Source: Gemmatimonadota bacterium (GTDB lineage Bacteria; Gemmatimonadota; Gemmatimonadetes; Gemmatimonadales; GWC2-71-9). From it: a DNA stretch of 16,289 nt. A model generated the notes under the pieces. It searched no databases, was not told where the DNA came from, and was given only the letters and a program-made list of their open reading frames with translations. A program made the translations under genes and the position numbers. The stretch is from NCBI GenBank assembly GCA_003221005.1, contig QHTZ01000024.1, positions 1 to 16,289 of the forward strand. Direction: 5' to 3'. Of this stretch, positions 1 to 16,272 are shown piece by piece. The number at the start of each line of letters is the position of its first letter. Position 1 is the stretch's first letter.

Positions 1-858
1 CGCCGCCCGCGCGTAGCACTCCTGTAGCTCGCGCGCGGGAACCTTCCCCCGGAACGTCGCCCGATCGCCCAGGCCAAGCTGGCGCGCCAGCGCCTCGAGC
101 GCCGGCCGCTCGGGGCCGTCGCCTATGACTTCGAGGCGTGGACCGCCGGGCCCGAGCCGCGCCAGGGCCTCCACGAGGTTCGCCACGCCCTTGCGCTCCA
201 CCAGCCGCCCCACGAAGAGCACCGGTCCAGTGCCGTCGCGTGCGACCGGTGCCGCACCCGGAGCCGGGAGCGACGTCGTGTAGGGGATGACCTCGATCGG
301 GATGTCGGCGAGCTCGCGCACCTCGGCCGCGGTGTAGCTCGAGATCGCCACGACACGGTCGGAGCGTCGCGCGGCCCACGCGAGAAACCGCCTGGCGAAG
401 GGCAGGGACGACCCCTTCACCCAGCGGAGCTCGGCGCCATAGAACGTGGTCACGAGACGTGCCGGCCGCGCTCGCTGCGCCGCCCAGCCGAGTAGCGCCA
501 GCGGGAACGGCCAGTGCACATGGATCACGTCGTAGCGGTGGCGGCGGCAGTGACGCCGGATCGCCACCATCCCCGCGACGACGAAGGCAAACGGCAGCAA
601 CCGATAGAGCAGGGAGCGACGCATCCGATCGGGCGCCGTTTCCTCGTGGGTCAGATTCTCCCAGCGACGCAAGAAATACCGGAACCGGTAGACCGGAATG
701 CCGGCGAACACGTGGTCCCCCATGCCGCGGTACGCCGACGTGAACACGGCGATGTCGTACCCCGCCGCGCGCAATCGCTTCAGCAGCTCGACGAGCCACG
801 GAGCGATGACGTCGTCGGCACTGCGGGGGAACGCGGTCACCACGTGGAGCACGCGCAT
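1..858 (-). CDS. Glycosyltransferase family 4 (GT-B fold), runs off the window edge
   Basis: Manual translation from ATG at 858, open to base 1: MRVLHVVTAFPRSADDVIAPWLVELL...YDVIHVHWPFP...VLFVGRLVERKGVANLVEALA...LEVIGDGPERPALEALARQLGL...; typical GT4 motifs. Not in the ORF track because no stop lies inside the window. Confidence 0.92.
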   Translation of the reverse strand, partial: MRVLHVVTAFPRSADDVIAPWLVELLKRLRAAGYDIAVFTSAYRGMGDHVFAGIPVYRFRYFLRRWENLTHEETAPDRMRRSLLYRLLPFAFVVAGMVAIRRHCRRHRYDVIHVHWPFPLALLGWAAQRARPARLVTTFYGAELRWVKGSSLPFARRFLAWAARRSDRVVAISSYTAAEVRELADIPIEVIPYTTSLPAPGAAPVARDGTGPVLFVGRLVERKGVANLVEALARLGPGGPRLEVIGDGPERPALEALARQLGLGDRATFRGKVPARELQECYARAA

Positions 859-936
859 CGCGGGAGTACTATACCGGACCGGGGTTCGGGCTCCAAGAGG
901 CCTCCTTTCCTGCGCTTAGGAGGCTTGGTATCTTGG
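859..936. promoter_or_regulatory. Divergent promoter region with overlapping -10-like hexamers and an SD-sequestering hairpin
   Basis: TACTAT (+, 867-872) overlaps TATAGT (-, 873-868). GCCTCCT 900-906 is complementary to AGGAGGC 918-924, and CCAAGA 893-898 to TCTTGG 931-936. Confidence 0.45.
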
Positions 937-1559
937 TCACACCGATGGCCCAACGCATTGCCCCCGCGTCTCGCGAGCTCGCGAAGTTCTACAGCGCCCG
1001 CCACAACTGGCGTAACTCTGGCGAGGAGCGGATGCGCTTCCGCAAGGCCACGGCGCTCGCTCGGGTCAGGCCCGGGAGCGCTGTGCTCGACATCGGGTCG
1101 CGCAACGGCGACCTCCGGCGGTACCTGCCGCCGGACGTGAAGTACCAGGGGCTCGACATCGCCCCCGAATTCGCCGCGCCCGATATTCTCGTGCACGACA
1201 TCTCGCAGGGGCTCCCGTTCGCGGACGTCTCGTTCGACTACGTCTTCATGATCGAGGTGCTGGAGCACACACCGACGGCGTATGCCACGGCGGGGGAGAT
1301 CCACCGCGTGCTGCGGCCCGGGGGCACGTGGATGGTGTCGGTCCCCAACCCCTATCACCTGAAGGAGATCATCTGGAACCTGCTGCGGGTGCCCGACAAG
1401 CAAGGGCACATCTACAGCTGGACCCGCCAGACGATTTCCCGGCTCGGGGAGATGAACGGGTTCCGCCTGGTGGACTGGGGCGGCACTTACTTCTATCCGC
1501 CGATTCCGGCGCCCTGGCTGCTGGCGCGGTCGGTGGCCTACAAGTTCGTCCGCGACTGA
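933..1559 (+). CDS. Class I SAM-dependent methyltransferase
   Basis: Motif I VLDIGSRNG, GLDIA, LPFADVSFDYVFMIEVLEH, EIHRVLRPGG. TTG at 933 has AGGAGG 9 nt upstream; ATG at 945 is an alternative start. Confidence 0.9.
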   Translation: MVTPMAQRIAPASRELAKFYSARHNWRNSGEERMRFRKATALARVRPGSAVLDIGSRNGDLRRYLPPDVKYQGLDIAPEFAAPDILVHDISQGLPFADVSFDYVFMIEVLEHTPTAYATAGEIHRVLRPGGTWMVSVPNPYHLKEIIWNLLRVPDKQGHIYSWTRQTISRLGEMNGFRLVDWGGTYFYPPIPAPWLLARSVAYKFVRD

Positions 1560-1566
1560 GCCCTGC

Positions 1567-2463
1567 GTGACCGGGCGGCGCTGGCTCCGGGCCGCTTCGG
1601 CCCTGGTCACCGTCGTGGTGGTCGCCCTCGTGGCGCGCGCCCTGGCCCGGAACTGGACCGAGTTCCGCACCTTGCACGTGACGCTCGCGGTGCGCCCGCT
1701 TTGGATCGTCGCTTCCGCGCTGCTCGTGCTGCTCACCTACGTAGCTCAAATCCAATCCTGGCGTGCGGTGCTCGCCGGCTGGCGGCAGCGGCTCTCCCTC
1801 GGGGCGGCGGCCCGCACTTGGAGTCTCGCGAACCTGGGCCGTTACGTGCCGGGGAAGGTGTGGAGCGTAGCCGGGCTGGTGGTGCTGGCCGAACGTGCGG
1901 GCGTGGAGCGCGCTCCCGCAGCCGCGTCCGCCTTCGCCTCGCAAGCCCTGGCTGTGGGAACCGGCGCCATCGTGGTCGCCGCTTGCACGCCGCACGCGAC
2001 GTCGCCGCTGCGGCTCGGCGCGGCGGTCCTCGCCGCGGTGGTCACGGTGGGACTCCTCGTCTGGCCGCCTGCCGTCCACCTCATCGGCCGCCTCGTCCAG
2101 GCGGAACGGCCCCTGGAGCCGCTGCGGCCTGCCGCAGTGCTGCAGGCGGTCGCATTTTCCCTGTGCGGTTGGGTGATCTACGGAATTGCGTTCTGGGCGC
2201 TGGCGCGCGGGCTCGTCGCCCCCGCGTCGGGAGCCCTGTCACTTTCGCTCGCCGCCGGCGCGTTCGCGCTGGGCTACATCGTGGGCTGGCTCGCGCTCTT
2301 CGCTCCCGGGGGAGTCGGGGTGCGCGAGCTGGTGTTCGTCGGCCTCCTGGCGCCCGTGCTGGGATCGGGGGGCGCCGTGGCCGTGAGCGTGGCATCTCGT
2401 GTCCTGCTCACCGCCACCGAGGCCGCCGCCGCCGCGCTCACCCTCCCGCTGGGTGACAAGTGA
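1567..2463 (+). CDS. UPF0104 / lysylphosphatidylglycerol-synthase TM domain (flippase-like) membrane protein
   Basis: About 8 hydrophobic segments; family motifs W..LANLGRYVPGKVW and APGGVGVRE...SR. Confidence 0.85.
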   Translation: MTGRRWLRAASALVTVVVVALVARALARNWTEFRTLHVTLAVRPLWIVASALLVLLTYVAQIQSWRAVLAGWRQRLSLGAAARTWSLANLGRYVPGKVWSVAGLVVLAERAGVERAPAAASAFASQALAVGTGAIVVAACTPHATSPLRLGAAVLAAVVTVGLLVWPPAVHLIGRLVQAERPLEPLRPAAVLQAVAFSLCGWVIYGIAFWALARGLVAPASGALSLSLAAGAFALGYIVGWLALFAPGGVGVRELVFVGLLAPVLGSGGAVAVSVASRVLLTATEAAAAALTLPLGDK

Positions 2464-4814
2464 GTCATCCCGAGGCACCGCCCGTGGCCCCGTTCGAGCC
2501 GAAGCGGCCGACGCTCCTCGCCACCGGCCTGTTCGCGCTGTGGCCGGTGCTGCTGTCGCTGCCGATGCTGCAAGGCCGCTGGCTCGCGAGCCCGTGGAGT
2601 GACCAATACACGGCGGGCTACCCGTTTCAGGCGTGGAGCGCCGAGTGGTGGAAGCGGACGGGCGATCTCCCGCTCTGGAACCCCGAGATCTTCGGCGGGC
2701 TCCCGTTTCTCGCGGCGGGGTCGGGAGATGTCTTCTACCCGACCTGGCTGTTGCGGCTGCTGATTCCGACCACGACCGCTGGCAACCTGAGCTTCTTCGT
2801 GCACTACGTCCTCGCCGGCCTCTTCACGTACCTGCTGGTCCGGCGTCTCGGCGTGTCGTGGGGTGGGGCTGTCGTGAGCGGCCTCGCCTACGAGCTGTCG
2901 GGCCTCATCGCCTCTTATCCCTCGCCCGGCCACGACGGCAAGCTGTTCGCCTCCACGATGCTCCCGCTGGCCTGTCTCGCGCTGGTTCTCACGCTGCGCG
3001 AACGACGCTGGACGGGGTACCCGCTGCTCGCCGCGGCCGTGGCGCTGTCCCTGCTCGGCCACTTCCAGCTCGCCTACTACCTCCTGATCGCGGCGGGACT
3101 GTTCGCGCTGTATCTCACGTTCGAGGAGGGCAGCGACGCGGGCGCGAAGGATGGAATGCGGGTGGGCCGCCTGGGACTCGCCCTCGCCGCGGTGCTCCTC
3201 GGCTTCGGCATCGCGGCGATCCAGGTCGTGCCGTTCCTCGAATACATCCCGTTCTCGCCTCGGGCGCAGGGGTACCGCGGCTTCGCCGGCTCGGTCTCCT
3301 TCGCCATCCCGTGGAATCACGTGCTCGAGTTCTTCCTGAAGAACTTCGTCGGCGCGCGCGAGACCTATTGGGGCTCAAACCCGCTCAAGCTGCACTCGGA
3401 GTACCTGGGGCTCCCGGTCATCGCGCTCGCGCTGCTGGGCGCCCGAGTGCGGGAGCGTCGCCGCCTCGTCCTCTGGCTCGGAGGCATCGGGCTGCTCTTC
3501 CTGCTGGTGAGCCTGGGGGGGGCGACGCCCTTCTACAAGCTGTGGTGGGCGCTGATGCCGCTCGTGAAGAAGACCCGCGCCCCGGGGATGGCCTTCTTCA
3601 TCGTAGCGTTCGTCACGGCGGTCTGCGCCGGCGTTGGCGCCGAGCGGGCGCTGTCGAGCGAGGGCCGGCGCGCGGCGCGGCCTGCGCTCGTGGTCGCCGC
3701 GTGCGTCGTGCTCCTCGCCGTCTTCGGCGTCTTCGGCCACGTGGCGCATACGCTGGCCGAGGGCCTCCAGGCGGATGCGGGGCGGGCGACCGGGGCGGCA
3801 GCCGACGCCGATCAAAGCGCGATCCTGTGGGGCGCCCTCGGGAGCGGCATCGCCCTCGCGATCGCCGCTGCGGTGTTCGGGCTCGCGAGTGGGAGGCTGG
3901 CGCCGGGCGTCGGGGCGGTGGCGCTCGCCCTCGGCGTCGGCACCGACCTGTGGCTGAACGCCCGTCCCTTCTGGAGCTACATCGAGCCGTACGGCCGCGA
4001 CCCCGTGATCGAGCGGATTGCCGCCACGCCGCTGCCATTCCGCGTCCTCAATCTCGACGCGTACCCCGGCTCGGCCCTCATGGCGTTCGATGTGCCGGAC
4101 GTGCTCGGCTACCACGGGAACGAGCTGCGCTACTACGACGAGCTGCTCGGAGGCAAGAACGAGTGGCGCAATCTCGGGCACCTGCCGCTGTGGAATCTGC
4201 TCGCGGTCCGCTATGCCATCGTGTCCACGGGACTGCGCGGCGCCGACTCGATCCCCGGCTTCCGCCGCGTGCTCGCCGCGGTGCGCGTGGCGGGGGGAGC
4301 GTCCGCGAACCTGTTCGAGCGGGAGACGCCTGCGCCCTACGCCCGTGTCGTCCCGGGGGCGATCAAGGGCGACTCGAGCATCATCGTTCCGACGCTCATG
4401 GACCCGCGCTTGGATTACTCGCGCGTCGTGCTGTTCACGACCGATCAGCCCGTCGTGCCCGCTCCGCTGAAGGAGCTGCCGCCACCGAGCCCGGCGAAAG
4501 CCACGGTCACGAGCTGGCAACCGGGACGGATGACGGTCGCCCTCGACCCCGCGCCGCCGGCACCGAGCTACCTCCTCATCGCCGAGAACTGGTACCCGGA
4601 CTGGCGGGCCCAAGCCGATGGGCGGCCGGCGCCTGTGGTCCGGGGGGACTACAGCCTGCTGGTGGTGCCCATCGCGGCCGGCACCCGCGCGGTAGAGCTG
4701 TCGTTCCGCTCGAGTGCCTACGAGCGCGGGCGGTTCATCACGCTGCTGTCGCTGCTCGTGCTCGTCGTGAGCGCCGGGGCAGCAGTGGCGGCGGGACGTG
4801 CGCGCCGTGTCTGA
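2460..4814 (+). CDS. YfhO-family polytopic membrane protein (GT-C fold glycosyltransferase)
   Basis: 784 aa, many TM helices; SDQYTAGYPF, LPLWNPEIFGGLPFLA, FYP, and C-terminal LLIAENWYPDWRAQADG...VELSFR plus a final TM. GTGA overlap with the upstream stop. Confidence 0.85.
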   Translation: MSHPEAPPVAPFEPKRPTLLATGLFALWPVLLSLPMLQGRWLASPWSDQYTAGYPFQAWSAEWWKRTGDLPLWNPEIFGGLPFLAAGSGDVFYPTWLLRLLIPTTTAGNLSFFVHYVLAGLFTYLLVRRLGVSWGGAVVSGLAYELSGLIASYPSPGHDGKLFASTMLPLACLALVLTLRERRWTGYPLLAAAVALSLLGHFQLAYYLLIAAGLFALYLTFEEGSDAGAKDGMRVGRLGLALAAVLLGFGIAAIQVVPFLEYIPFSPRAQGYRGFAGSVSFAIPWNHVLEFFLKNFVGARETYWGSNPLKLHSEYLGLPVIALALLGARVRERRRLVLWLGGIGLLFLLVSLGGATPFYKLWWALMPLVKKTRAPGMAFFIVAFVTAVCAGVGAERALSSEGRRAARPALVVAACVVLLAVFGVFGHVAHTLAEGLQADAGRATGAAADADQSAILWGALGSGIALAIAAAVFGLASGRLAPGVGAVALALGVGTDLWLNARPFWSYIEPYGRDPVIERIAATPLPFRVLNLDAYPGSALMAFDVPDVLGYHGNELRYYDELLGGKNEWRNLGHLPLWNLLAVRYAIVSTGLRGADSIPGFRRVLAAVRVAGGASANLFERETPAPYARVVPGAIKGDSSIIVPTLMDPRLDYSRVVLFTTDQPVVPAPLKELPPPSPAKATVTSWQPGRMTVALDPAPPAPSYLLIAENWYPDWRAQADGRPAPVVRGDYSLLVVPIAAGTRAVELSFRSSAYERGRFITLLSLLVLVVSAGAAVAAGRARRV

Positions 4815-5529
4815 GCGCGCGCTCGTCATCATCCCCACCTACAACGAGGCCCCGAACCTCGGGAATCTCGTTCCGCTGGTGTTGTCTCAAGACGAGCGGC
4901 TCGAGGTCCTGGTGGTGGACGACAACTCTCCCGACGGCACCGGTCAGCTGGCAGAAGCGCTGGCGCGTGCCAACCCCCGGGTGCACGTCCTGCATCGCGA
5001 GGGGAAACGGGGACTCGGGACCGCGTATCTCACCGGGTTCCGCTGGGCGATCGAGCGCGGCTACGACTACGTCTTCGAGATGGATGCGGACTTCTCGCAC
5101 GATCCCGTCCACCTCAAGGACTTTCTCAAGGCCGTGGCGGACGCGGACTTAGTGCTTGGCTCCCGGTACCTGGACGGGAAGGTGACGGTCGTCAACTGGC
5201 CTATGGCGCGTCTCCTGTTATCCTACACTGCAAACATCTACGCCCGGCGGCTGACCGGCTTGCGGATGTGGGACCTGACGGGTGGGTTCAAGTGCTTTCG
5301 CAGGCGGGTACTCGAAACGATCGACCTGTCGCAGGTGCGGTCCAACGGCTACGCATTTCAGATCGAGATGAGCGTGCGCGCATGGCGAAAAGGATTCAGG
5401 CTCAAAGAAATCCCGATCGTATTCGTCGATCGAACCGAAGGGGCCAGCAAGATGAACCACGCGATCGTCCGGGAGGCGATTTGGATGGTTCCGCGCCTGC
5501 GGTTGATGGCGTGGTTCGGCCGCATCTGA
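4807..5529 (+). CDS. Polyprenol monophosphomannose synthase-like GT2 (Ppm1/Dpm1 family)
   Basis: IIPTYNEA, VVDDNSPDGTG, GLGTAY, EMDADFSHDP, GSRY, DLTGGFKCFRR, SNGYAFQIEM, FVDRTEGASKM. GTG at 4807 overlaps the YfhO stop. Confidence 0.92.
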   Translation: MSERALVIIPTYNEAPNLGNLVPLVLSQDERLEVLVVDDNSPDGTGQLAEALARANPRVHVLHREGKRGLGTAYLTGFRWAIERGYDYVFEMDADFSHDPVHLKDFLKAVADADLVLGSRYLDGKVTVVNWPMARLLLSYTANIYARRLTGLRMWDLTGGFKCFRRRVLETIDLSQVRSNGYAFQIEMSVRAWRKGFRLKEIPIVFVDRTEGASKMNHAIVREAIWMVPRLRLMAWFGRI

Positions 5530-6356
5530 GCGGCCTGACGGTCTACAAGATGACGGGGTCGGGGAACGACTTCGTCATGGTAGACGGTCGTCACTCGTCG
5601 CCCGAGGACTGGGCGGTGAGCGACATTCACGCCGTATGCGCGCGCGGCACGGGGATCGGGGCGGACGGACTCGTGTTCGTAGGACCGGGGTCGAAGCCCG
5701 GTACCGTGCAGATGACCTACTTCAACAGCGACGGATCCCGCGCGATGTGCGGCAATGCGGCCCTCTGCAGCACTCGCCTGGCCGCGCATCTCGGCTTCGC
5801 CAACGCTCTCGCCATGCGGCTGGAGACGGATGCGGGCGTATATGAGAGCCGCTGCAGCCGCGATGACGGTCGCGCCGAACTGCGGTTCGCCGCGGTCGCG
5901 GCGCCCGCGAGGGTCACCAGCGCCGCGCTCAGCGCCGGTGAGCAGCGTGCGGCGCTGGCCGTGGTGGGCGTACCGCACCTCGTCGTGCTGGTGGATGACG
6001 TCGACCCGCTGGACGTGACGGGCCGCGGCAAGACGTTGCGGCACGATCCGGCTTTGGGGCCCGCGGGAGCCAACGTCAACTTCGTCGCCGCGGGAGCGGG
6101 CTCGGGGGCGCGGCCGGAATGGCGGATGCGCACCTACGAGCGGGGAGTGGAGGGGGAGACGCTAGCCTGCGGCACGGGCGCGATCGCCGTCGCGTGCGCG
6201 CTCGAGCAGTGGGGTCTGGGAACGCTGCCGCTCGCTATTCGGACGCGCAGCGGCAAGACCCTTGATGTCCGGGGGCAAAAGGCCCCTGGAGGTGGCTACG
6301 AGGACGTCTGGCTGGTGGGGGAGGCCCGGCTCGTGTTTAGGGGTGTGGTTATTTAG
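5526..6356 (+). CDS. dapF: Diaminopimelate epimerase
   Basis: KMTGSGNDF, GIGADGL, catalytic MCGNA and ETLACGTGA, GVPH, GANVNF, RTYERGVEGET. Start uncertain (CTG 5526, GTG 5511 or ATG 5550); the ORF-track start at 5268 lies inside the GT2 gene. Confidence 0.93.
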   Translation: MSGLTVYKMTGSGNDFVMVDGRHSSPEDWAVSDIHAVCARGTGIGADGLVFVGPGSKPGTVQMTYFNSDGSRAMCGNAALCSTRLAAHLGFANALAMRLETDAGVYESRCSRDDGRAELRFAAVAAPARVTSAALSAGEQRAALAVVGVPHLVVLVDDVDPLDVTGRGKTLRHDPALGPAGANVNFVAAGAGSGARPEWRMRTYERGVEGETLACGTGAIAVACALEQWGLGTLPLAIRTRSGKTLDVRGQKAPGGGYEDVWLVGEARLVFRGVVI

Positions 6357-6439: not shown

Positions 6440-7126
6440 CTAGGGCACGCCCGCCCCCTTCGTCAGCTCCCCGATGCGCACCTTCGCCTCTGTCACCGTG
6501 GGAGTCGAGTCCGTCCCCGACACGATGCTGCGGTAGTCGCTCAGCGCTGTGGCAGTGTCCCCCGCCGCCAGCCGCGCGCGCCCTGCATCCGAGAGGTATT
6601 GCGCCTTCAGAAAGGCATACTGGGCGCGGCGCGCGGCCTCTTCGTACGCCGCCGCGGCGTCTGCCGGGTGCCCGGCGTTCTCGTACGTCGCACCCAGGAG
6701 ACCGTAGGCCTGGGCCGCGTAGTCGCGCCCGACCGCTGGCGCGACGCGCTTCAGCAGGTCGATCGCCTGCGGACCTTGCCCCTGGTATAGGTGCACCTGC
6801 GCCAACAGCAGATTCGCTTGCGCCGCTGCGCGCGTGCCGGAGAAGTTTTCCACGAGCCGCGACAGTTCGCTCGCCGCCAGTGGATAATTGTGAGACTCGA
6901 AGGCGAGCCGGGCCTGCTCGAGCCGCTCGCTCGCCGCCGCCTCGACCCGGCTCCTCGAGAGGGCGTTCCACCATGCCAAGCCCCCGCCGATCACGATGAC
7001 CGCCGCGATGGCGCCCGCCATCTGACGATGGCCCTTGATCCACTGGATGAGCCACGTCAGCGCCGGCGACTCGCCCGGCGGAGGCGTCCTCGCCGCGCCG
7101 CGCGCGGCTTGCACGGAAGTCGCCAT
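6440..7126 (-). CDS. Membrane-anchored tetratricopeptide repeat protein (YfgM-like)
   Basis: N-terminal TM (AGAIAAVIVIGGGLAWW) followed by TPR-like helices. ATG 7126 has GAGGA 7 nt upstream; the ORF-track start at 7180 falls inside the tRNA. Confidence 0.82.
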   Translation of the reverse strand: MATSVQAARGAARTPPPGESPALTWLIQWIKGHRQMAGAIAAVIVIGGGLAWWNALSRSRVEAAASERLEQARLAFESHNYPLAASELSRLVENFSGTRAAAQANLLLAQVHLYQGQGPQAIDLLKRVAPAVGRDYAAQAYGLLGATYENAGHPADAAAAYEEAARRAQYAFLKAQYLSDAGRARLAAGDTATALSDYRSIVSGTDSTPTVTEAKVRIGELTKGAGVP

Positions 7127-7157
7127 GAATCGGTCCTCGCTGTACCCCCCACCCCAG

Positions 7158-7231
7158 TGCCCCTGGGGTGACTCGAACACCCGGCCAACGGTTTAGGAAA
7201 CCGCTGCTCTATCCACCTGAGCTACAGGGGC
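7158..7231 (-). tRNA. tRNA-Arg(CCT)
   Basis: GCCCCTG/CAGGGGC acceptor stem, GCTC/GAGC D-stem, GCGGT-TTCCTAA-ACCGT anticodon arm, GGGTG-TTCGAGT-CACCC T-arm. CCA is not encoded. Confidence 0.96.
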
Positions 7232-8092: not shown

Positions 8093-8719
8093 CTAGTCGC
8101 CCGACGGCGCCCGGCGCCGCTGCCGCAGCGCGTACACGCCGACGCTGAGCGCCAGGATCGGGAGCACGATGAGCAACGCGCGGCTCACATAGTGCTGCAC
8201 TGCCGCCTGGCGCAAGACCCCCTCGTTCCGGCCCAGCAGGTAGCCGATCGCCACGAGGATGCTGCACCACGCGAACGCGCCGAGTCCCGTGTACCCGATG
8301 AAGCGGCGCAGCGGCATCCGGGCGATTCCCGCCGGGATCGAGATCAGGTGACGGACGACTGGAAGCATGCGCCCTACCAGGACGCTGATCTCGCCGTGCG
8401 CGGCGAAGTAGCGCTCGGTGCGATCGAGCGACTTCTCGGTGACGAGGAAGTATTTCCCGAACCGGCGGACGAACCCGCGGCCGAGCCAGAGCGCCAGGCC
8501 GTAGTTCACGAGCGACCCGACAACACCGCCCAGGACGCCGCTCGCGATCGCGAGGGCGGCATCCATTTCCCCCTTGGCCACCCAGTAGCCGGCGGGCGGC
8601 ATCACGAGCTCCGCAGGGACCGGCAGCACCGAGGATTCCATGGCCATCAACAGGACGATCCCCGGGTAGCCGAGGTCGAGCAGCCCGTTCAGGAGCCACT
8701 GGATGAATTGCTCAAGCAT
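8093..8719 (-). CDS. DedA family membrane protein (UptA/YngC-like)
   Basis: LGYPGIVLLMAMESSVLPVPAELVMPPAG, GSLVNYGL, GRMLPVVRHLISIPAG. ATG 8719 overlaps the pcm stop. Confidence 0.92.
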   Translation of the reverse strand: MLEQFIQWLLNGLLDLGYPGIVLLMAMESSVLPVPAELVMPPAGYWVAKGEMDAALAIASGVLGGVVGSLVNYGLALWLGRGFVRRFGKYFLVTEKSLDRTERYFAAHGEISVLVGRMLPVVRHLISIPAGIARMPLRRFIGYTGLGAFAWCSILVAIGYLLGRNEGVLRQAAVQHYVSRALLIVLPILALSVGVYALRQRRRAPSGD

Positions 8720-9386
8720 CGAAGCCGTGCTCCCCGACGAGCGGGACGAAGCGGGCGTCCCCGAGCGGCGTGCGCCTGAGGTCAGCGCCATCACCCGTGC
8801 GCTCGACGAGCGTCAGGATCTGCGCTCCGCGGTCGCCCAGTGGCATCAGCAGCCGTCCCCCGGGCGCGAGCTGCGCGGCGAGCGGCGGCGGAACCTCCGG
8901 CCCTCCCGCAGCCACGAGGATCGCGTGGTAGGGCGCGTAGTCGCTCCACCCCAGCGTCCCGTCCCCCAGGAGCACGGACGCATTCGTAACACCTGCCTGG
9001 CGCAGCGCCTGTTGAGCCCGGAGGGCGAGGGCGCGGACCCGCTCGACGCTGAACACCTGGCCGGCCAGGGCGCACAGCAGCGCAGTTTGGTACCCGGAGC
9101 CAGTCCCGATCTCCAGCACGCGCTCGCTGCCCCGGAGGCCGAGCGCCTCCAGATAACGGGCCTGCGTGAAGGGTTGCGAGATCGTCTGCCCGTTCCCGAT
9201 CGGGAGGGCGGCGTCGTCGTAGGCGCGCGGGCGCAGCGCCTCGGGAACGAACAGGTGGCGCGGTGTCTCGGCGAACGCCTTGAGTACCGCCAGATCACGG
9301 ATCCCCCGAGCGCGGAGCGCCTCCACCAAGCGTGACCGGTAGCCGGCGAAGGTGTCGCCCCGCCCCGTTAGTCTTCGGGAAACCAC
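8712..9386 (-). CDS. pcm: Protein-L-isoaspartate O-methyltransferase
   Basis: PRHLFVP, AYDDAALPIGNGQTISQP, VLEIGTGSGYQTA, GDGTLGW, RFVPLVG. GTG 9386 gives MVSRR and overlaps the surE end; surE-pcm order is classical. Confidence 0.94.
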   Translation of the reverse strand: MVSRRLTGRGDTFAGYRSRLVEALRARGIRDLAVLKAFAETPRHLFVPEALRPRAYDDAALPIGNGQTISQPFTQARYLEALGLRGSERVLEIGTGSGYQTALLCALAGQVFSVERVRALALRAQQALRQAGVTNASVLLGDGTLGWSDYAPYHAILVAAGGPEVPPPLAAQLAPGGRLLMPLGDRGAQILTLVERTGDGADLRRTPLGDARFVPLVGEHGFDA

Positions 9387-11407: not shown

Positions 11408-12021
11408 CTGTCCTCGCCCCCTGGGATGACGCGCGTCCGGAAACGATGCTCCGTCCCTGCGGCCAGCCGCCGGATGTTCGCGCGGTGCGAGAACACGATG
11501 AGCAACGCCAGGGCGACGCTCGCCCACAGGGTGGAGGGAGCGTCCGGCCGGGTGAGGCGCGCCCACAGAGGAAAGAGGGCCGCCGCGACGAGGGAGCTGA
11601 CCGAGACGTATCCCGACAGCCACAGTACCACTCCCCACACAATGGCCGAGATCGCGAGCGCGAGCGGCGCGAGCGCCAGGAACATCCCGCCCGCCGTGGC
11701 AACCCCCTTCCCGCCCCTGAAGCGAACGTAGGGCGAAAACACGTGGCCCGTCACGGCCGCGACCCCCGCCGCCACGGGCAGCCACGGCGGACCCCCGGAC
11801 CAGCGCTCGCACAGCGTCACGGGGAGCGCCCCCTTCGCCACGTCCAACAGGCCAACCGGGATCGCATACCGCCACCCGAGCACGCGGTACACGTTGGTCG
11901 CGCCGAGATTCCGGCTGCCGTGCTGGCGGAGATCGATCCCCCGCCCCAAGCGCCCGGCGATGTAGCTCGTCGGAATCGCGCCGAATAGGTAGGACGCCGC
12001 CAGCCACAGGGCCGCCGTCAC
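11404..12021 (-). CDS. plsY: Glycerol-3-phosphate 1-O-acyltransferase PlsY
   Basis: YLFGAIP, HGSRNLGATNVYR, DVAKG, GHVFS..FRGGKGVAT, HRANIRRL..GTE. GTGA overlap with the der stop. Confidence 0.95.
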   Translation of the reverse strand: MTAALWLAASYLFGAIPTSYIAGRLGRGIDLRQHGSRNLGATNVYRVLGWRYAIPVGLLDVAKGALPVTLCERWSGGPPWLPVAAGVAAVTGHVFSPYVRFRGGKGVATAGGMFLALAPLALAISAIVWGVVLWLSGYVSVSSLVAAALFPLWARLTRPDAPSTLWASVALALLIVFSHRANIRRLAAGTEHRFRTRVIPGGEDR

Positions 12022-13343
12022 GAGCGCACCCGCTTGCGGCGGAACTTGATGTTCACCGGGGCGCCGGTGAATTCCCAGGCCTCGCGGAAGCCGTTCAGCA
12101 GGTACCGCGTATAGGACTCGGGGATCGCCTCCGGGCGGTTCGAGACCACCGCGAAGCGCGGCGGAGCGGTGCCGATCTGCGAGGCGTACAGCAACCGCAC
12201 CGACGCTCCCACCGGCTGAGGGGGCTGCTGGCGCTGCACCAGCTCCTCGAGCACGCGGTTCACCTCGGCGGTGGGCACGCGCTTGTCCCTGGCTTCCGCC
12301 ACCTCGACGATCAGCTCGAGCAACTTCGTCACGCGCTGCCCGGTCTTGGCGGACACGTACAGGAACGGGATGAACGCGAGGAAGGGCGCCTTGTCCTGCA
12401 ACTCCCGCTCGCCGCGCACGGCGGTGTTGGCGTCCTTCTCCTCGATCAAGTCCCACTTGTTCACGGCGACGATCAGCCCCGCGCCGCGCTCCCACGCCTC
12501 GGTCGCGATCTTCAGGTCCTGGGCGTGCATGCCGTCGCTCGCGTCCACCACCAGGATGCACACGTGGGCGCGCTCGATGGCGCGCGCGGTGCGCAGCGTC
12601 GAGTAGAACTCGATGTCGTCCGAGACCTTGGAGCGCTTGCGCAGCCCGGCCGTGTCGATGAACACGATGGTACGCCCATGGTAGACGAGCGGCGTGTCGA
12701 TCGCATCCCGGGTGGTCCCGGGCTCCGCCGCCACCACGAGCCGATCTTGCCCCAGCAGGCGGTTCACGAGGCTCGACTTCCCCACATTGGGACGGCCCAC
12801 GACGGCGACGTGAATGGCGGGCTCCGCGCCCGTGGCGCCCCACGGCGGCAGCAGCTCGACCACGCGATCGAGCAGATCGCCGCTGCTCTTCCCCACCGCG
12901 GCGGACACCGGGAACGGATCGCCCAGGCCGAGCTCGTAAAACGCGAGGTGCCGCGTGTCAACCGGCAGCTCGTCCGCCTTGTTCGCGACGAGCAGAAACG
13001 GCCGCCGGGACTTGCGCACCAGCTCGGCGATCTCGCGATCGGCCGGGTGCACCCCGGCGCTCACGTCCACCACGAACAGCAGCGCGTCGCTCTCGGCGAT
13101 TGCCAGCTCCACCTGCGCCCGCACCGCCTGGCTCAGAGGATCGCTCGCCTGCGGCACGAGGCCCCCCGTGTCCACGAGCCAGAAGCGCTGCCCGTTCCAT
13201 TCCGCGGCGGCGAAATGCCGGTCCCGGGTGACGCCCGGCTCCGCGTCCACGATCGCGTCACGCCGGCCGATGATGCGGTTGAAGAGGGTGGACTTGCCGA
13301 CGTTGGGGCGGCCGATGATGGCGACGGTGGGGGCGCCCTTCAT
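12018..13343 (-). CDS. der: Ribosome biogenesis GTPase Der (EngA)
   Basis: Two G-domains (GRPNVGKS twice, PGVTRD/PGTTRD, DTGG/DTAG, NKAD/NKWD) and a KH-like C-terminus. Own ATG at 13343 preceded by GGGAGGGGAAGGG, but in frame with the upstream DUF512 ORF. Confidence 0.95.
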   Translation of the reverse strand: MKGAPTVAIIGRPNVGKSTLFNRIIGRRDAIVDAEPGVTRDRHFAAAEWNGQRFWLVDTGGLVPQASDPLSQAVRAQVELAIAESDALLFVVDVSAGVHPADREIAELVRKSRRPFLLVANKADELPVDTRHLAFYELGLGDPFPVSAAVGKSSGDLLDRVVELLPPWGATGAEPAIHVAVVGRPNVGKSSLVNRLLGQDRLVVAAEPGTTRDAIDTPLVYHGRTIVFIDTAGLRKRSKVSDDIEFYSTLRTARAIERAHVCILVVDASDGMHAQDLKIATEAWERGAGLIVAVNKWDLIEEKDANTAVRGERELQDKAPFLAFIPFLYVSAKTGQRVTKLLELIVEVAEARDKRVPTAEVNRVLEELVQRQQPPQPVGASVRLLYASQIGTAPPRFAVVSNRPEAIPESYTRYLLNGFREAWEFTGAPVNIKFRRKRVRS

Positions 13344-14549
13344 CCCTTCCCCTCCCACCCTCACGTCGTCGATGAATTGCATATCGTCGTTCACGGCCTC
13401 CGCCGGGAGGAGCGCGAGATCGAGGTCGCCCCGGTCCCGCAGGGCCGCACGAATCCCGGCCCCCGGGAGGAGGCCTGCGGTCGTCACCGCGGGGCCGAAC
13501 AGAGCGTTCTCGAGCACTATGAGCTGGTACGCGGCTCCTGTCAGCTCGGCGAGCCCCGCGAGCACCTGCGGCAGCAACGCCCCCATCGCGGTGCCGGTCA
13601 CGATGCCGATGCGCCGCCCCGCGAGCTGTCCCAAGTCCTCCCGGGCGGCGGCGATGCGCGTCTCCAGGTAGCGAACCGCTCCGACCCCGTTCTCGCGCTG
13701 CTCGAAATCGCCGTACCACTCCGCCGGCGGCAGCAGCTCGCCCGCCTGCAGGTACAAGTCATCCGCTCCGTAGCACCACGGGAAGCCGCGCTCCGCCACG
13801 GCCCGCGCGGCGAAGTCACTCACGGTGGCGAGGGCGCGCCTGCACTCGTCCCCCGTCGGCTGTCGCACCAGGTGATGCTTGCTGAACTCCGTCAGCGCGA
13901 CCGGGACGACGGAGACGGAGAGGATCGGCTCCCCCAGGCTGTAGAGGTCGGTGAGCGTGCTGGTCAACACCGCTCCGTCGTTCACACCTGGGACGAGGAC
14001 CACTTGCGTGTGGAATTTGATCCCCCGGTTCCCGAGCTGTGCGAGCTGCGGCACTACGTCAGGCGCTTCCGGATTGCGCAGCAGCCAGCGGCGCACCGTC
14101 GGATCGGTCGCGTGCACCGAGACGTACAGCGGCGACAGGCGATACTCCACGATCCGCTCCACGTCCCACGGCTTGAGATTCGTCAGGGTGGCGAAGTTGC
14201 CGTAGCGGAACGACAGCCGGTAGTCGTCGTCCCGGATGTAGAGCGGCCGGCGCAGGTCCTCAGGGTTGCCGTCCACGAAGCAGAAGTCGCAGTGATTGGC
14301 GCAACGGCGGATTCGCGGTGGCTCGAGCGTCACGCCCATCGGCCAGCCCTCAGGGCGCAGCACGTCGTACTCGATCTCCTCCCGCGCGGGCGACTTCACG
14401 TGCAACATGAAGTGCTCGTCGGCGGTGAGGAACTCCCAGTCCAGGAAGTCCTCGAGCGGCCTGCTGTTGACGGCCAGGAGCTCGGTCCCGCGAGTGAGTC
14501 CCAGGGCGGCACCGAGAGAGCCCGGCGCCACGGCCTGCACACGGATCAC
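13344..14549 (-). CDS. DUF512 PDZ-containing radical-SAM protein, no stop codon, reads into der
   Basis: N-terminal PDZ-like segment, CANHCDFC (CxxxCxxC), LYIRDDDYRLSFRYGNFATLTN, LSPLYVSVHAT, ENGVG, TTAGLL, FIDD. Confidence 0.88.
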
Positions 14550-14637: not shown

Positions 14638-16272
14638 CTAAGACGGCCTGTAGCGCCAGCCGAGCAGGTCTGTCCCCTTCACGTGGAGCTCGAACTGCTG
14701 GCTTCCGCCTGGCGGGAGGGCCGGGATGTCCGCCGGCAGTGTGGTCGCAACCGCGCCCCCAGGCCCGAGAAAATCGAAGGACAGTTTGAAGGGCTGGGAC
14801 GCTGCCGACCGGAGGTTTGTGGCAACGGCGGTGAGGACGAACCCCGCGCTGTCGGGGGCAAAGCTCGATACCGTGATGTCCACCGGCAGGGTCGAGTCGG
14901 CCCTGGTGACGTACTTCAGGGTGGAGTCGCGGCGACCCTTCAGGTCCCAGGCAGCGGCGACCAGGCGAATGCCGTTCCGGTTCAAGGGGTCGAGGGCGAT
15001 CAGGCGCTGGGCGGTGGGAAGCATGTTCGCCGAGTCCCGCAGCGTGTAGTAGGCCCTGGCGAGATAGAACAGTGCGTCACGGCGATAGGGATTCCTCGCG
15101 AGCCCGAGGGAGAGGGCGCGGGCGCCGGGGCGCACCAGCCCCGTGCCGAGCAGCCGCTCGCCCGCGATGATGAGGTCCTCCGCTTGCAGGTTGTGCGCAT
15201 GGACGAGCACGGAATCGAACACCGTCGTGGCCAGGTCGGGCTCGCCGCTCTGGGCGTAGAGCGTGGCAAGGTTCGTCGCGGCATCCATGTCATCGGGGAA
15301 CGCCGCGAGGAGATCGCGGTGCGCCGCGATCGCGGGCGCCGAGACGGCGCGCACGGCGGCAGCGCCGCTCGCCGCCTGCACGGCGAGCGCGGCCCGCGCG
15401 GCGCGCTCGCGGCCCACGGCGTCGGCTCGAGCGGACGAGTCGCGGCTGAACGCCGCCTGATCGGCAGGAGAGAGCCGCGCCTGCCGCTTGTGACGGGAGA
15501 CCGAGGAGGCGACCATGCGCGCGACGACCGCCGAATCGGCCGCGAGCAGGCGCTCCAGCGAATCCTGACTGGCGCGCGTCTGCTGCGCGCGCTGCACCGC
15601 AGGATCTGTCTGGGCACGACTCAAGTAGATGCGCGCGACGTTGGAGAGCGCGTCGCGGCGGTTGGCGGATAGCGCGGTGTCGCCTGCTGCCGCCGCTGCC
15701 GCGCGGCGGTAGTACACGATGGCGGAGTCGAAGGTCTGGGCCTCCGCGTACAGCCCCGCGAGCGCGAACAGCGGCCGGGCGTTCGAGGGCACCAGGCGGT
15801 AGGCCAGGCGGAACAACGCGGCCGCAGAGTCCTGGTTGCCGGCTTGCCAGGCAGTCGCGGCTCGATTCTGCGTTTCGACGGAGAGCACGCGTCGGTAGGT
15901 CGCGATGTCCGCTGTGCACTGCGGCGCGAGCGCCTCCGCGCGCGCGAAGGCGGTGTCCGCGCCCGCTGCGTCACCCACCGCCTTGAAATAGCGGCCGAGG
16001 TAGTACCAGGCGGCGGGGTTCTTATCCTGCTTGTCGTCCACGATCGAGCGAAACAGCACGTCCTTCGCCTGTGCCAGCATCCGGTCGCGCACGTCCTGCC
16101 GCTCGGCCGCCAGCTTCAGGTCGAGTTGCGCGGAGACGATGCGGAAGTAGCCGGGGGAGATGTCGCAAGGCGGACGGGGCGGAACCCACTGCTGAGCTCC
16201 GAGGAGGCTCGCACCCCCCAGGAGGAGGGCCAGGGCGGACCGAGGGGCGGTCCGTAAGCCAATCGGCGGCAT
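14638..16272 (-). CDS. Secreted TPR-repeat protein with C-terminal FxLYD-like beta domain
   Basis: Signal peptide (RSALALLLGGASLLGA/QQ), TPR motifs (AAWYYLGRY, PLFALAGLY, AATNLATLY, DALFYLARAY) and a C-terminal VATN...LSFDFLGPGG...LPPGGSQQF segment. Confidence 0.78.
   Translation of the reverse strand: MPPIGLRTAPRSALALLLGGASLLGAQQWVPPRPPCDISPGYFRIVSAQLDLKLAAERQDVRDRMLAQAKDVLFRSIVDDKQDKNPAAWYYLGRYFKAVGDAAGADTAFARAEALAPQCTADIATYRRVLSVETQNRAATAWQAGNQDSAAALFRLAYRLVPSNARPLFALAGLYAEAQTFDSAIVYYRRAAAAAAGDTALSANRRDALSNVARIYLSRAQTDPAVQRAQQTRASQDSLERLLAADSAVVARMVASSVSRHKRQARLSPADQAAFSRDSSARADAVGRERAARAALAVQAASGAAAVRAVSAPAIAAHRDLLAAFPDDMDAATNLATLYAQSGEPDLATTVFDSVLVHAHNLQAEDLIIAGERLLGTGLVRPGARALSLGLARNPYRRDALFYLARAYYTLRDSANMLPTAQRLIALDPLNRNGIRLVAAAWDLKGRRDSTLKYVTRADSTLPVDITVSSFAPDSAGFVLTAVATNLRSAASQPFKLSFDFLGPGGAVATTLPADIPALPPGGSQQFELHVKGTDLLGWRYRPS

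Follow-up and report, generated by a model that had tools for sequence, protein, structure and literature searches.

A 16,289-nucleotide window of Gemmatimonadota DNA (contig QHTZ01000024.1 of assembly GCA_003221005.1) was analysed with particular attention to four closely packed genes near its start, which encode a methyltransferase, a UPF0104 membrane protein, a YfhO-family glycosyltransferase of the GT-C type, and a glycosyltransferase of family GT2. The best explanation overall, which we hold with moderate confidence, is that these genes (positions 933-5529) are the window's share of a conserved Gemmatimonadota envelope-glycosylation module. Its general mechanism – synthesis of a lipid-linked sugar, carriage of that lipid across the inner membrane, and transfer of the sugar to an acceptor outside – is very probable, as judged from homology, fold, invariant residues, synteny and gene fusions; a lipid-anchored acceptor is favoured more tentatively. 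The cassette is a further case of a known synthase/flippase/GT-C type of system, not a new type. Contig C116, which the window covers in full, belongs to a 2.79-Mb assembly that is 94% complete and has ~70% G+C, and the features that concern us are as follows.

1-858, - strand: GT4 glycosyltransferase, N-terminal 286 amino acids (aa) (Pfam Glyco_transf_4, 1.7e-21, and the start of Glycos_transf_1)
933-1559, + strand: class I S-adenosylmethionine (SAM)-dependent methyltransferase (Pfam Methyltransf_23, 1.2e-14; Methyltransf_11, 1.5e-12)
1567-2463, + strand: UPF0104/LPG_synthase_TM (PplT) membrane protein, putative flippase, 298 aa (PF03706, 49.9 bits; cut-off 33.4)
2460-4814, + strand: YfhO-family GT-C glycosyltransferase (yfhO), 784 aa (YfhO PF09586, 53.2 bits; cut-off 28.5)
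2601-2603, + strand: codon of Asp48 in S47-D48-Q49, candidate catalytic base in the first periplasmic loop
3972-4715, + strand: periplasmic domain of the GT-C (residues 505-752), an alpha/beta subdomain and then a beta-sandwich
4798-5529, + strand: DPM1/Ppm1/AglD-like GT2 without membrane helices, 243 aa (Glycos_transf_2 PF00535, 1.6e-33)
5553-6356, + strand: dapF, diaminopimelate epimerase (TIGR00652, 174.8 bits; cut-off 114.65)

The GT4, methyltransferase, UPF0104, GT-C and GT2 genes named in the initial annotation all lie where it had placed them, and each is matched by Pfam. The close packing that it described is also seen: 7 nt separate the methyltransferase from UPF0104, UPF0104 and yfhO overlap by 4 nt, and yfhO and GT2 overlap by 17 nt. 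A gap of 23 nt follows before dapF, and no promoter-like or + strand terminator-like sites were found in 933-6356; dapF, a co-directional neighbour, is probably carried as a passenger of the cassette's transcription unit. The GT4 is divergent to the cassette and is cut by the contig end; the rest of it (the C-terminal 112 aa) maps to the end of contig C125 (G000:C125:22933-22598). The host had been called a probable diderm, and since LpxC is encoded in the genome it is an LPS (lipopolysaccharide)-type diderm.

The GT-C passes the gathering cut-off of the YfhO family with a match that covers its residues 113-421, equivalent to profile positions 97-384 of 835. The PMT_2 profile matches weakly (19 bits), and the C-terminal 59 residues align to the end of the PgfM1 model (31.9 bits), the best NCBIfam match for the C-terminus. 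No GT-C match was found among PDB chains by sequence, in either a single-sequence or a profile search. An AlphaFold model built from 19 orthologues (predicted local distance difference test, pLDDT, 86.4; predicted template modelling score, pTM, 0.88) has a multi-helix membrane domain, a periplasmic domain whose beta-sandwich is carbohydrate-module-like, and a C-terminal membrane helix. With this model Foldseek gave 30 PDB matches at E <= 1e-3, all of them GT-C enzymes among the matches listed, which confirms the fold that the initial annotation had expected. The fold resembles those of STT3, PglB and Pmt4, and the closest solved structure is AftD. AftD, ArnT, STT3, AglB and PglB are the usual top structural matches for YfhO-type enzymes, whose extracellular domains presumably bind the acceptor polymer (both from the available part of PMC8035078), so the fold confirms the class of enzyme and does not name its acceptor.

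In the model Asp48 stands at the start of helix 48-67, after membrane helix 17-37, within the loop that connects helices 17-37 and 104-129. GT-C enzymes have a catalytic acidic residue, an Asp, in the first extracytoplasmic loop, and the acidic residue proposed for this role from the SDQ motif is invariant both in the order (19/19 sequences) and phylum-wide (22/22, with other classes and stand-alone paralogues included). Residues R268, E314, R373 and D496 are invariant in the same 22 sequences, and D90 is present in 18 of them. The GT-C family is large: among 1.84 billion cluster representatives there are 26,671 homologues at E <= 1e-3, 10,615 at E <= 1e-10 and 771 at E <= 1e-30, and YfhO-type clusters were seen in Gemmatimonadota, Verrucomicrobiota and Chloroflexota in the protein atlas.

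The closest solved relative of the GT2 is the dolichol-phosphate mannose synthase (DPMS) of Pyrococcus (5mlz; E 4.7e-27), whose MDAD aligns with D96-A97-D98 of the window protein. In the GT2 the peak 19-residue hydrophobicity is 0.87 and no membrane helix is predicted, unlike in Pyrococcus DPMS; the AglJ and PpgS models of NCBIfam match below threshold. With its DXD motif and lack of membrane helices the protein is a predicted polyprenyl-phosphate sugar synthase of the DPM1/Ppm1 type, and no other gene of the cassette is as well conserved (57-85% identity across the phylum).

The UPF0104 protein is one of six paralogues in the genome, and only chance-level matches were obtained against PDB sequences. 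The family is described as the flippase domain of MprF and, in archaea, as the C-terminal domain of AglD, with PMT/STT3-like GT-C and AglD-like GT2 neighbours (PMC5898192, in the part available); it is also reported fused to GT-A, GT-B and methyltransferase domains (10.1101/2022.03.11.483950, likewise). A Pseudomonas aeruginosa operon of GT4, deacetylase and UPF0104 genes (gpgS, gpgD and gpgF) makes glucosaminyl (GlcN)-phosphatidylglycerol, according to the available text of PMC12713373. In the window the LPG_synthase_TM domain stands alone, with no aminoacyl-phosphatidylglycerol synthase domain as in MprF, and the cassette has no GtrA-type gene, UPF0104/PplT occupying the place that a dedicated flippase (GtrA, Wzx or ArnEF type) would take. 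The methyltransferase has NCBIfam matches below threshold, and its solved relatives are generic class I enzymes (E 8e-7 or weaker).

The GT-C is single-copy in this genome. It was found in 40 of the 41 genomes of the order and, at a threshold of E <= 1e-10, in 199 of 201 sampled across the phylum; the first tally includes the unpublished genome G020 and the second the unpublished G201, G121 and G083. Neither the assembly of G030 nor that of the unpublished G176 yielded the GT-C, the cassette GT2 or the neighbouring dapF; UPF0104 was found in G176 but not in G030. Because dapF is missing too, this points to an assembly gap (probably a missing contig, at least in G030) and not to gene loss, and the idea that these genomes are natural knock-outs of the GT-C was rejected.

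Gene neighbourhoods were counted at 80 named loci, wherever there was enough flanking sequence. The GT2 is directly downstream of yfhO at 65 of 68 loci, dapF is downstream of the GT2 at 61 of 65, and UPF0104 is directly upstream of yfhO at 68 of 76. The three loci without a following GT2 are stand-alone copies (L082, L083 and L084), and at three of the eight that lack an adjacent UPF0104 the gene lies farther away. The co-localisation is thus conserved, and it holds in other classes. It does not extend in the same degree to the remaining genes of the initial annotation. The methyltransferase, although part of the packed operon here, is within 3 kb upstream of yfhO at only 23 of 69 loci and is not core; it is a clade-specific extra that probably tailors the sugar or a lipid head group. 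A GT4 of some kind is found within 3.3 kb at 56 of 69 loci, co-directional at 45 and divergent like the window's at 11. The window's GT4 is 64% identical to its same-genus orthologue and only ~30% identical to the co-directional GT4s of other lineages. It is present at 1-858 (-) as described but is a clade-specific replacement of the co-directional gene.

An ArnC-like GT2 (GT2') lies within 5 kb at 34 of 59 loci and rpoN within 6 kb at 32 of 59, the usual order being lptB-rpoN-GT2'-GT4-UPF0104-yfhO-GT2-dapF. GT2' aligns along the whole of the ArnC model (95.7 bits, short of the equivalog cut-off) and carries two membrane helices at its C-terminus. In this genome the end of contig C125 carries lptB, rpoN and GT2', together with the 3' part of the GT4 that the window lacks. 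The three-part architecture of synthase, flippase-like protein and GT-C put forward initially thus holds, but as part of a larger module that includes the ArnC-like GT2 and the GT4 and follows lptB-rpoN. In other classes the members are kept despite shuffled gene order (L125, L129, L130 and L132): L129 has lptB-rpoN-GT2'-GT4-yfhO-UPF0104-GT2, and L132 has lptB-rpoN-GT2'-UPF0104-yfhO-GT4-GT2 with the GT4 on the opposite strand. This persistence in different orders argues for function over inherited order. In two complete genomes of one genus (G157 and G127) GT2 and UPF0104 are adjacent and the GT-C is elsewhere. In G092, a further genome of the genus, one GT-C copy is in the cassette and another stands alone. 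Stand-alone YfhO-like paralogues without cassette neighbours occur in Gemmatimonadaceae (L137, L138, L139, L082-L084 and L092).

The LptB-like ATP-binding cassette (ABC) ATPase encoded upstream of rpoN is ~390 aa long (L020:13838-15016 (-), G000:C125:18033-19178); its ABC domain begins near residue 160, leaving an unexplained N-terminal extension of ~160 aa.

Longer homologues of the GT2 gave 769 matches, and the best 120 of these (44-73% identity) were analysed by precomputed domain lists. Their fusion partners are GtrA (34), GT4 (12), UPF0104/PplT (7), LpxB (5), PAP2 (3), methyltransferase (2, P0123 and P0124), GT9 (2), dapF (1) and an Lnt-like domain (1). Three fusions were checked by alignment. 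P0121, a protein of 1033 aa encoded on 2 contigs, joins a YfhO-like GT-C (35% identity over 758 residues) to a GT2 that is 73% identical, an arrangement consistent with a cytoplasmic end to the last membrane helix of the GT-C; in P0122 a GT2 is joined to a PplT that shares 33% identity with the window protein; and P0123 joins a related methyltransferase core (37% identity over 106 residues) to a GT2. Fusions of GT2 to LpxB and to a GT9 heptosyltransferase-like domain are represented by P0139 and P0175, and there is one case of a methyltransferase-PplT fusion (P0046). Single metagenome gene calls may be frameshift artefacts, and fusions on several contigs are safer. Taken together, the joining of GT2 to PplT, GtrA, YfhO, GT4 and methyltransferase bears out the functional linkage of the cassette's parts that had been supposed. 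Since GtrA and PplT occupy the same place beside the same GT2, a role of UPF0104/PplT equivalent to that of GtrA is suggested; this is what chiefly speaks for UPF0104 as the protein that takes the lipid-linked sugar across the membrane, and at the sequence level no stronger case has yet been made than these fusions for UPF0104/PplT as a stand-in for GtrA in carrying polyprenol-linked sugars.

We therefore picture a route in which the soluble DPM1/AglD-like GT2 would, by homology, load polyprenyl phosphate with a single hexose taken from a nucleotide sugar, on the cytoplasmic side of the membrane; UPF0104/PplT, as synteny and the PplT and GtrA fusions suggest, would bring the lipid-linked sugar to the periplasmic face; and the YfhO/AftD-like GT-C, whose activity is predicted, would transfer the sugar via Asp48 to an acceptor outside the inner membrane. 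This logic would parallel that of actinobacterial PimA/PimB and Ppm1 followed by PimE/Mpt, and that of ArnC/ArnT.

Several characterized systems resemble parts of this arrangement. In the CsbB/GtcA/YfhO type of route a GT-A enzyme makes a C55-P-sugar, a flippase moves the sugar lipid, and a YfhO-family GT-C transfers the sugar outside (as outlined in the available part of PMC8035078). The same three-step layout and the same GT-C Pfam family are shared by the cassette, CsbB/GtcA/YfhO of Bacillus subtilis and GtlA/GtcA/GtlB of Listeria, the latter two acting in lipoteichoic acid (LTA) glycosylation. The cassette differs in that its host is an LPS-type diderm without known LTA, in having PplT/UPF0104 instead of GtrA and a DPM1-type GT2 without helices instead of one of the CsbB/GtrB type, and in the restriction of the YfhO match to the profile segment given above. 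The archaeal AglD-type module (MJ_1080, arCOG00899 and MJ_1079) is similar in placing an AglD-like GT2, UPF0104 and a PMT/STT3-like GT-C together (PMC5898192, in part), and AglD, a UPF0104 domain fused to a DPM1-like GT2, has its counterpart in the PplT-GT2 fusions among close homologues of the cassette GT2; the archaeal module, however, serves N-glycosylation of S-layer proteins and flagellins, whereas here the host is bacterial and the GT-C is of the YfhO family. Compared with actinobacterial Ppm1 acting with Pmt, PimE and MptA/B, and with mycobacterial AftD, there is no sequence-level match to AftD, and the phylum is a different one with a diderm envelope. ArnC/ArnEF/ArnT carries out periplasmic transfer from an undecaprenyl-phosphate sugar to LPS, and an ArnC-like GT2 and an lptB neighbour are found here, but the cassette GT-C belongs to the YfhO family and not to ArnT, a separate ArnT-like GT-C being encoded elsewhere in the genome. 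The YfhO protein of Bacteroidota, a predicted O-oligosaccharyltransferase (O-OTase), is likewise a near-universal YfhO-family protein in the same superphylum (10.64898/2026.07.27.740950, in the part available), and the sequon of that phylum is enriched here; unlike it, the GT-C of the cassette pairs with a single-sugar donor synthase, and relatives keep the GT-C without a sequon signal.

The Bacteroidota O-glycosylation sequon is given as D-(S/T)-(A/I/L/V/M/T) in the available part of PMC8729774. It was counted in proteins of this genome (1,696, called by a GC3-based rule), of which 249 were classed as exported and 979 as cytoplasmic by a simple signal-peptide and hydrophobicity rule, both the calling and the signal-peptide rule being home-made heuristics. 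The exported proteins contain 552 sequons against 252.5 expected from composition (ratio 2.19; bootstrap confidence interval 1.95-2.44), and 200 within-protein shuffles of the same set gave 254.5 +/- 15; the cytoplasmic proteins contain 715 against 740.6 expected (0.97). At position -1 Asp alone is enriched, the other 19 residues ranging from 0.75 to 1.18; at position 0 the values are 2.79 for S and 1.64 for T; and at position +1 they are L 2.75, T 2.55, V 2.31, I 1.94 and A 1.65, with charged residues depleted. This position-specific profile agrees with the published motif, although the enrichment is not proof of glycosylation. A control of 350 kb of Sinorhizobium meliloti pSymB gave 21/29.2 (0.72). 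Two proteins of the window itself stand out: a 544-aa tetratricopeptide repeat (TPR) protein (14638-16272, -) has 11 sequons against 2.1 expected, and a 246-aa TPR protein (6440-7180, -) has 2 against 0.4. Six related genomes gave the following observed/expected counts in exported proteins.

G030, same order: 36/18.0, ratio 2.00
G026, same order: 22/11.0 (10 proteins), ratio 2.00
G041, another class: 133/61.7, ratio 2.16
G087, another order: 65/78.0 (56 proteins), ratio 0.83
G084, another order: 55/77.3 (49 proteins), ratio 0.71
G135, another order: 15/8.9 (11 proteins), ratio 1.68

Genomes G087 and G084 keep the GT-C and GT2 with no enrichment; the invariant residues of the GT-C are intact in those lineages, and the genus of G084 retains the whole module (L130 and L132). 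The sequon signal is therefore real but does not follow the cassette. Exported proteins were one of the candidate acceptors in the initial annotation, with a sequon as the lead; the enrichment stands for this genome, and its link to the cassette is not borne out in G087 and G084. Two other GT-Cs appear to be better phyletic candidates for the sequon transferase, as judged from few and related genomes: an ArnT-like, PMT_2-type GT-C at G000:C120:88633-90312 (+), which scores 175.7 bits to the ArnT model, and a second PMT_2-type GT-C at G000:C1:4920-6419 (+). Each was found in G030, G026 and G041, the relatives with the enrichment, and in none of G087, G084 and G135. Wzy_C (PglL-like) proteins were rejected as the sequon enzyme: three of the genome's four were queried, none was found in five of the six relatives, and the sixth, G041, has one weak 24% match for one of the three; Wzy_C-type families diverge fast, so that this non-detection is weak evidence. 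A GT-C on contig C12 was also rejected, having no match in six genomes.

The acceptor of the cassette would be a lipid-anchored envelope glycan, either LPS (in its core or lipid A part) or a glycolipid whose synthesis the co-clustered GT4 and ArnC-like GT2 would start. We lean towards such an acceptor over proteins, at something close to an even chance, because a cytoplasmic GT4 and a second carrier-sugar synthase, the ArnC-like GT2, are constant in the module; because the module directly follows lptB-rpoN; because GT2 homologues are fused to LpxB, GT9 and PAP2 among the best 120 of 769; because the periplasmic domain is AftD-like; and because the sequon does not co-vary with the cassette. A number of points weigh against this interpretation. 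Sugar, lipid carrier and acceptor alike are predictions; the ArnT-like GT-C at C120 would be the default lipid A modifier; and the lptB-rpoN/dapF synteny could be inherited order without functional meaning, the TPR-apt-dedA block being conserved too. The structural matches to AftD, ArnT and STT3 do not tell one acceptor from another. Proteins, too, are modified by YfhO-family enzymes, and the best NCBIfam match of the C-terminus is to PgfM1; such enzymes reportedly glycosylate proteins in streptococci. The strong protein O-glycosylation sequon signal in this genome has no enzyme assigned to it. We know of no demonstrated flipping of a polyprenol-linked sugar by UPF0104, and the flippase role of gpgF is itself unverified in the available text of PMC12713373. 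Literature searches on Gemmatimonadota with glycosylation, LPS or O-glycosylation found, in titles and the starts of abstracts, no paper on glycosylation in the phylum, and a search on the polar lipids of Gemmatimonas gave nothing useful.

Attachment of the sugar to exported proteins, at the Bacteroidota-type sequon or at other Ser/Thr sites, with the GT2 supplying the lipid-linked donor, seems to us somewhat unlikely. The Asp-specific enrichment confined to exported proteins, its recurrence in G030, G026 and G041, and its absence from the pSymB control all fit this explanation, as do the fold resemblance to STT3, PglB and Pmt4 and the lack of conservation of the three Wzy_C proteins in the relatives tested; it has to be set against the unenriched G087 and G084, the value for G135, which is unclear, the better fit of the C120 enzyme to the sequon distribution, the home-made heuristics behind the counts, and the module's cytoplasmic GT4, which would have no role in single-sugar protein glycosylation. 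The in silico prediction of Bacteroidota YfhO as the O-OTase of that phylum, made in a preprint (10.64898/2026.07.27.740950, in the part available), conflicts with the absence of YfhO, according to the same text, from Porphyromonas gingivalis, a species with 257 mapped O-glycosylation sites (PMC8729774, in part). A specific form of the idea, in which Gemmatimonadales share Bacteroidota-type protein O-glycosylation and the cassette takes part either as the O-glycosyltransferase (the GT-C) or as a donor arm (GT2 and PplT) feeding an ArnT/PMT-like GT-C, we regard as unlikely.

Neither of two further alternatives is given much weight. It is improbable that the locus holds two separate systems side by side, with GT4 and UPF0104 making and flipping a glycosylated phospholipid or glycolipid (as in gpgSDF and hexSDF) and the GT-C and GT2 serving another target with a different flippase. 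A co-directional GT4 stands directly before UPF0104 in most lineages (45/69 loci), and the GT4 proteins match the GlcN_PG_synth model weakly (51.8 and 72.5 bits against a cut-off of 480), as would be in keeping with such a pair; the P. aeruginosa operon that yields GlcN-phosphatidylglycerol (PMC12713373) and archaeal UPF0104 genes, typically found beside GT4 and a deacetylase (PMC5898192), are precedents in the parts of these sources available, but no deacetylase was seen in the loci scanned. UPF0104, yfhO and GT2 stayed together when the window's clade replaced the co-directional GT4, the GT2-UPF0104 adjacency outlasts relocation of the GT-C, PplT is fused to close homologues of the cassette GT2, and the GT4-GT2 fusions tie the GT4 to the same pathway. 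We are similarly doubtful of peptidoglycan, or another non-lipid periplasmic or surface polysaccharide, as the acceptor. AftD, the closest solved structure, acts on cell-wall arabinan, and the carbohydrate-module-like beta-sandwich and the frequency of dapF after the GT2 could be read in the same way; dapF, however, sits in a larger conserved stretch of housekeeping genes that also takes in TPR, apt and dedA; no gene specific to murein is found linked, and we know of no YfhO-type enzyme with murein as its acceptor.

The Gemmatimonadota abound in soil, and there have been almost no studies of the chemistry of their envelope. That the GT-C is nearly universal, occurs in single copy and comes with its own donor synthase points to a core modification of the envelope in this phylum, and the cassette is a defined gene target in cultured Gemmatimonas. 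The sequon signal would widen the footprint of Bacteroidota-type O-glycosylation to a second phylum, and the contrast between genomes with and without it could help to find the missing transferase.

The remaining genes of the window are of housekeeping type, and encode a TPR protein, Apt, an acylphosphatase, DedA, Pcm, SurE, a MerR regulator, GpsA, PlsY, a DUF512-Der fusion and a second TPR protein. The DedA/VTT-family membrane protein is encoded at 8093-8794 (-), ~3 kb downstream of the cassette, a position retained in most related loci; DedA proteins are recyclers of undecaprenyl phosphate. The DUF512-Der fusion (12018-14549, -) is 843 aa long and joins a radical-SAM-like/DUF512 domain (residues 70-398) to the GTPase Der/EngA, whose part consists of two GTPase domains and a KH-like end.

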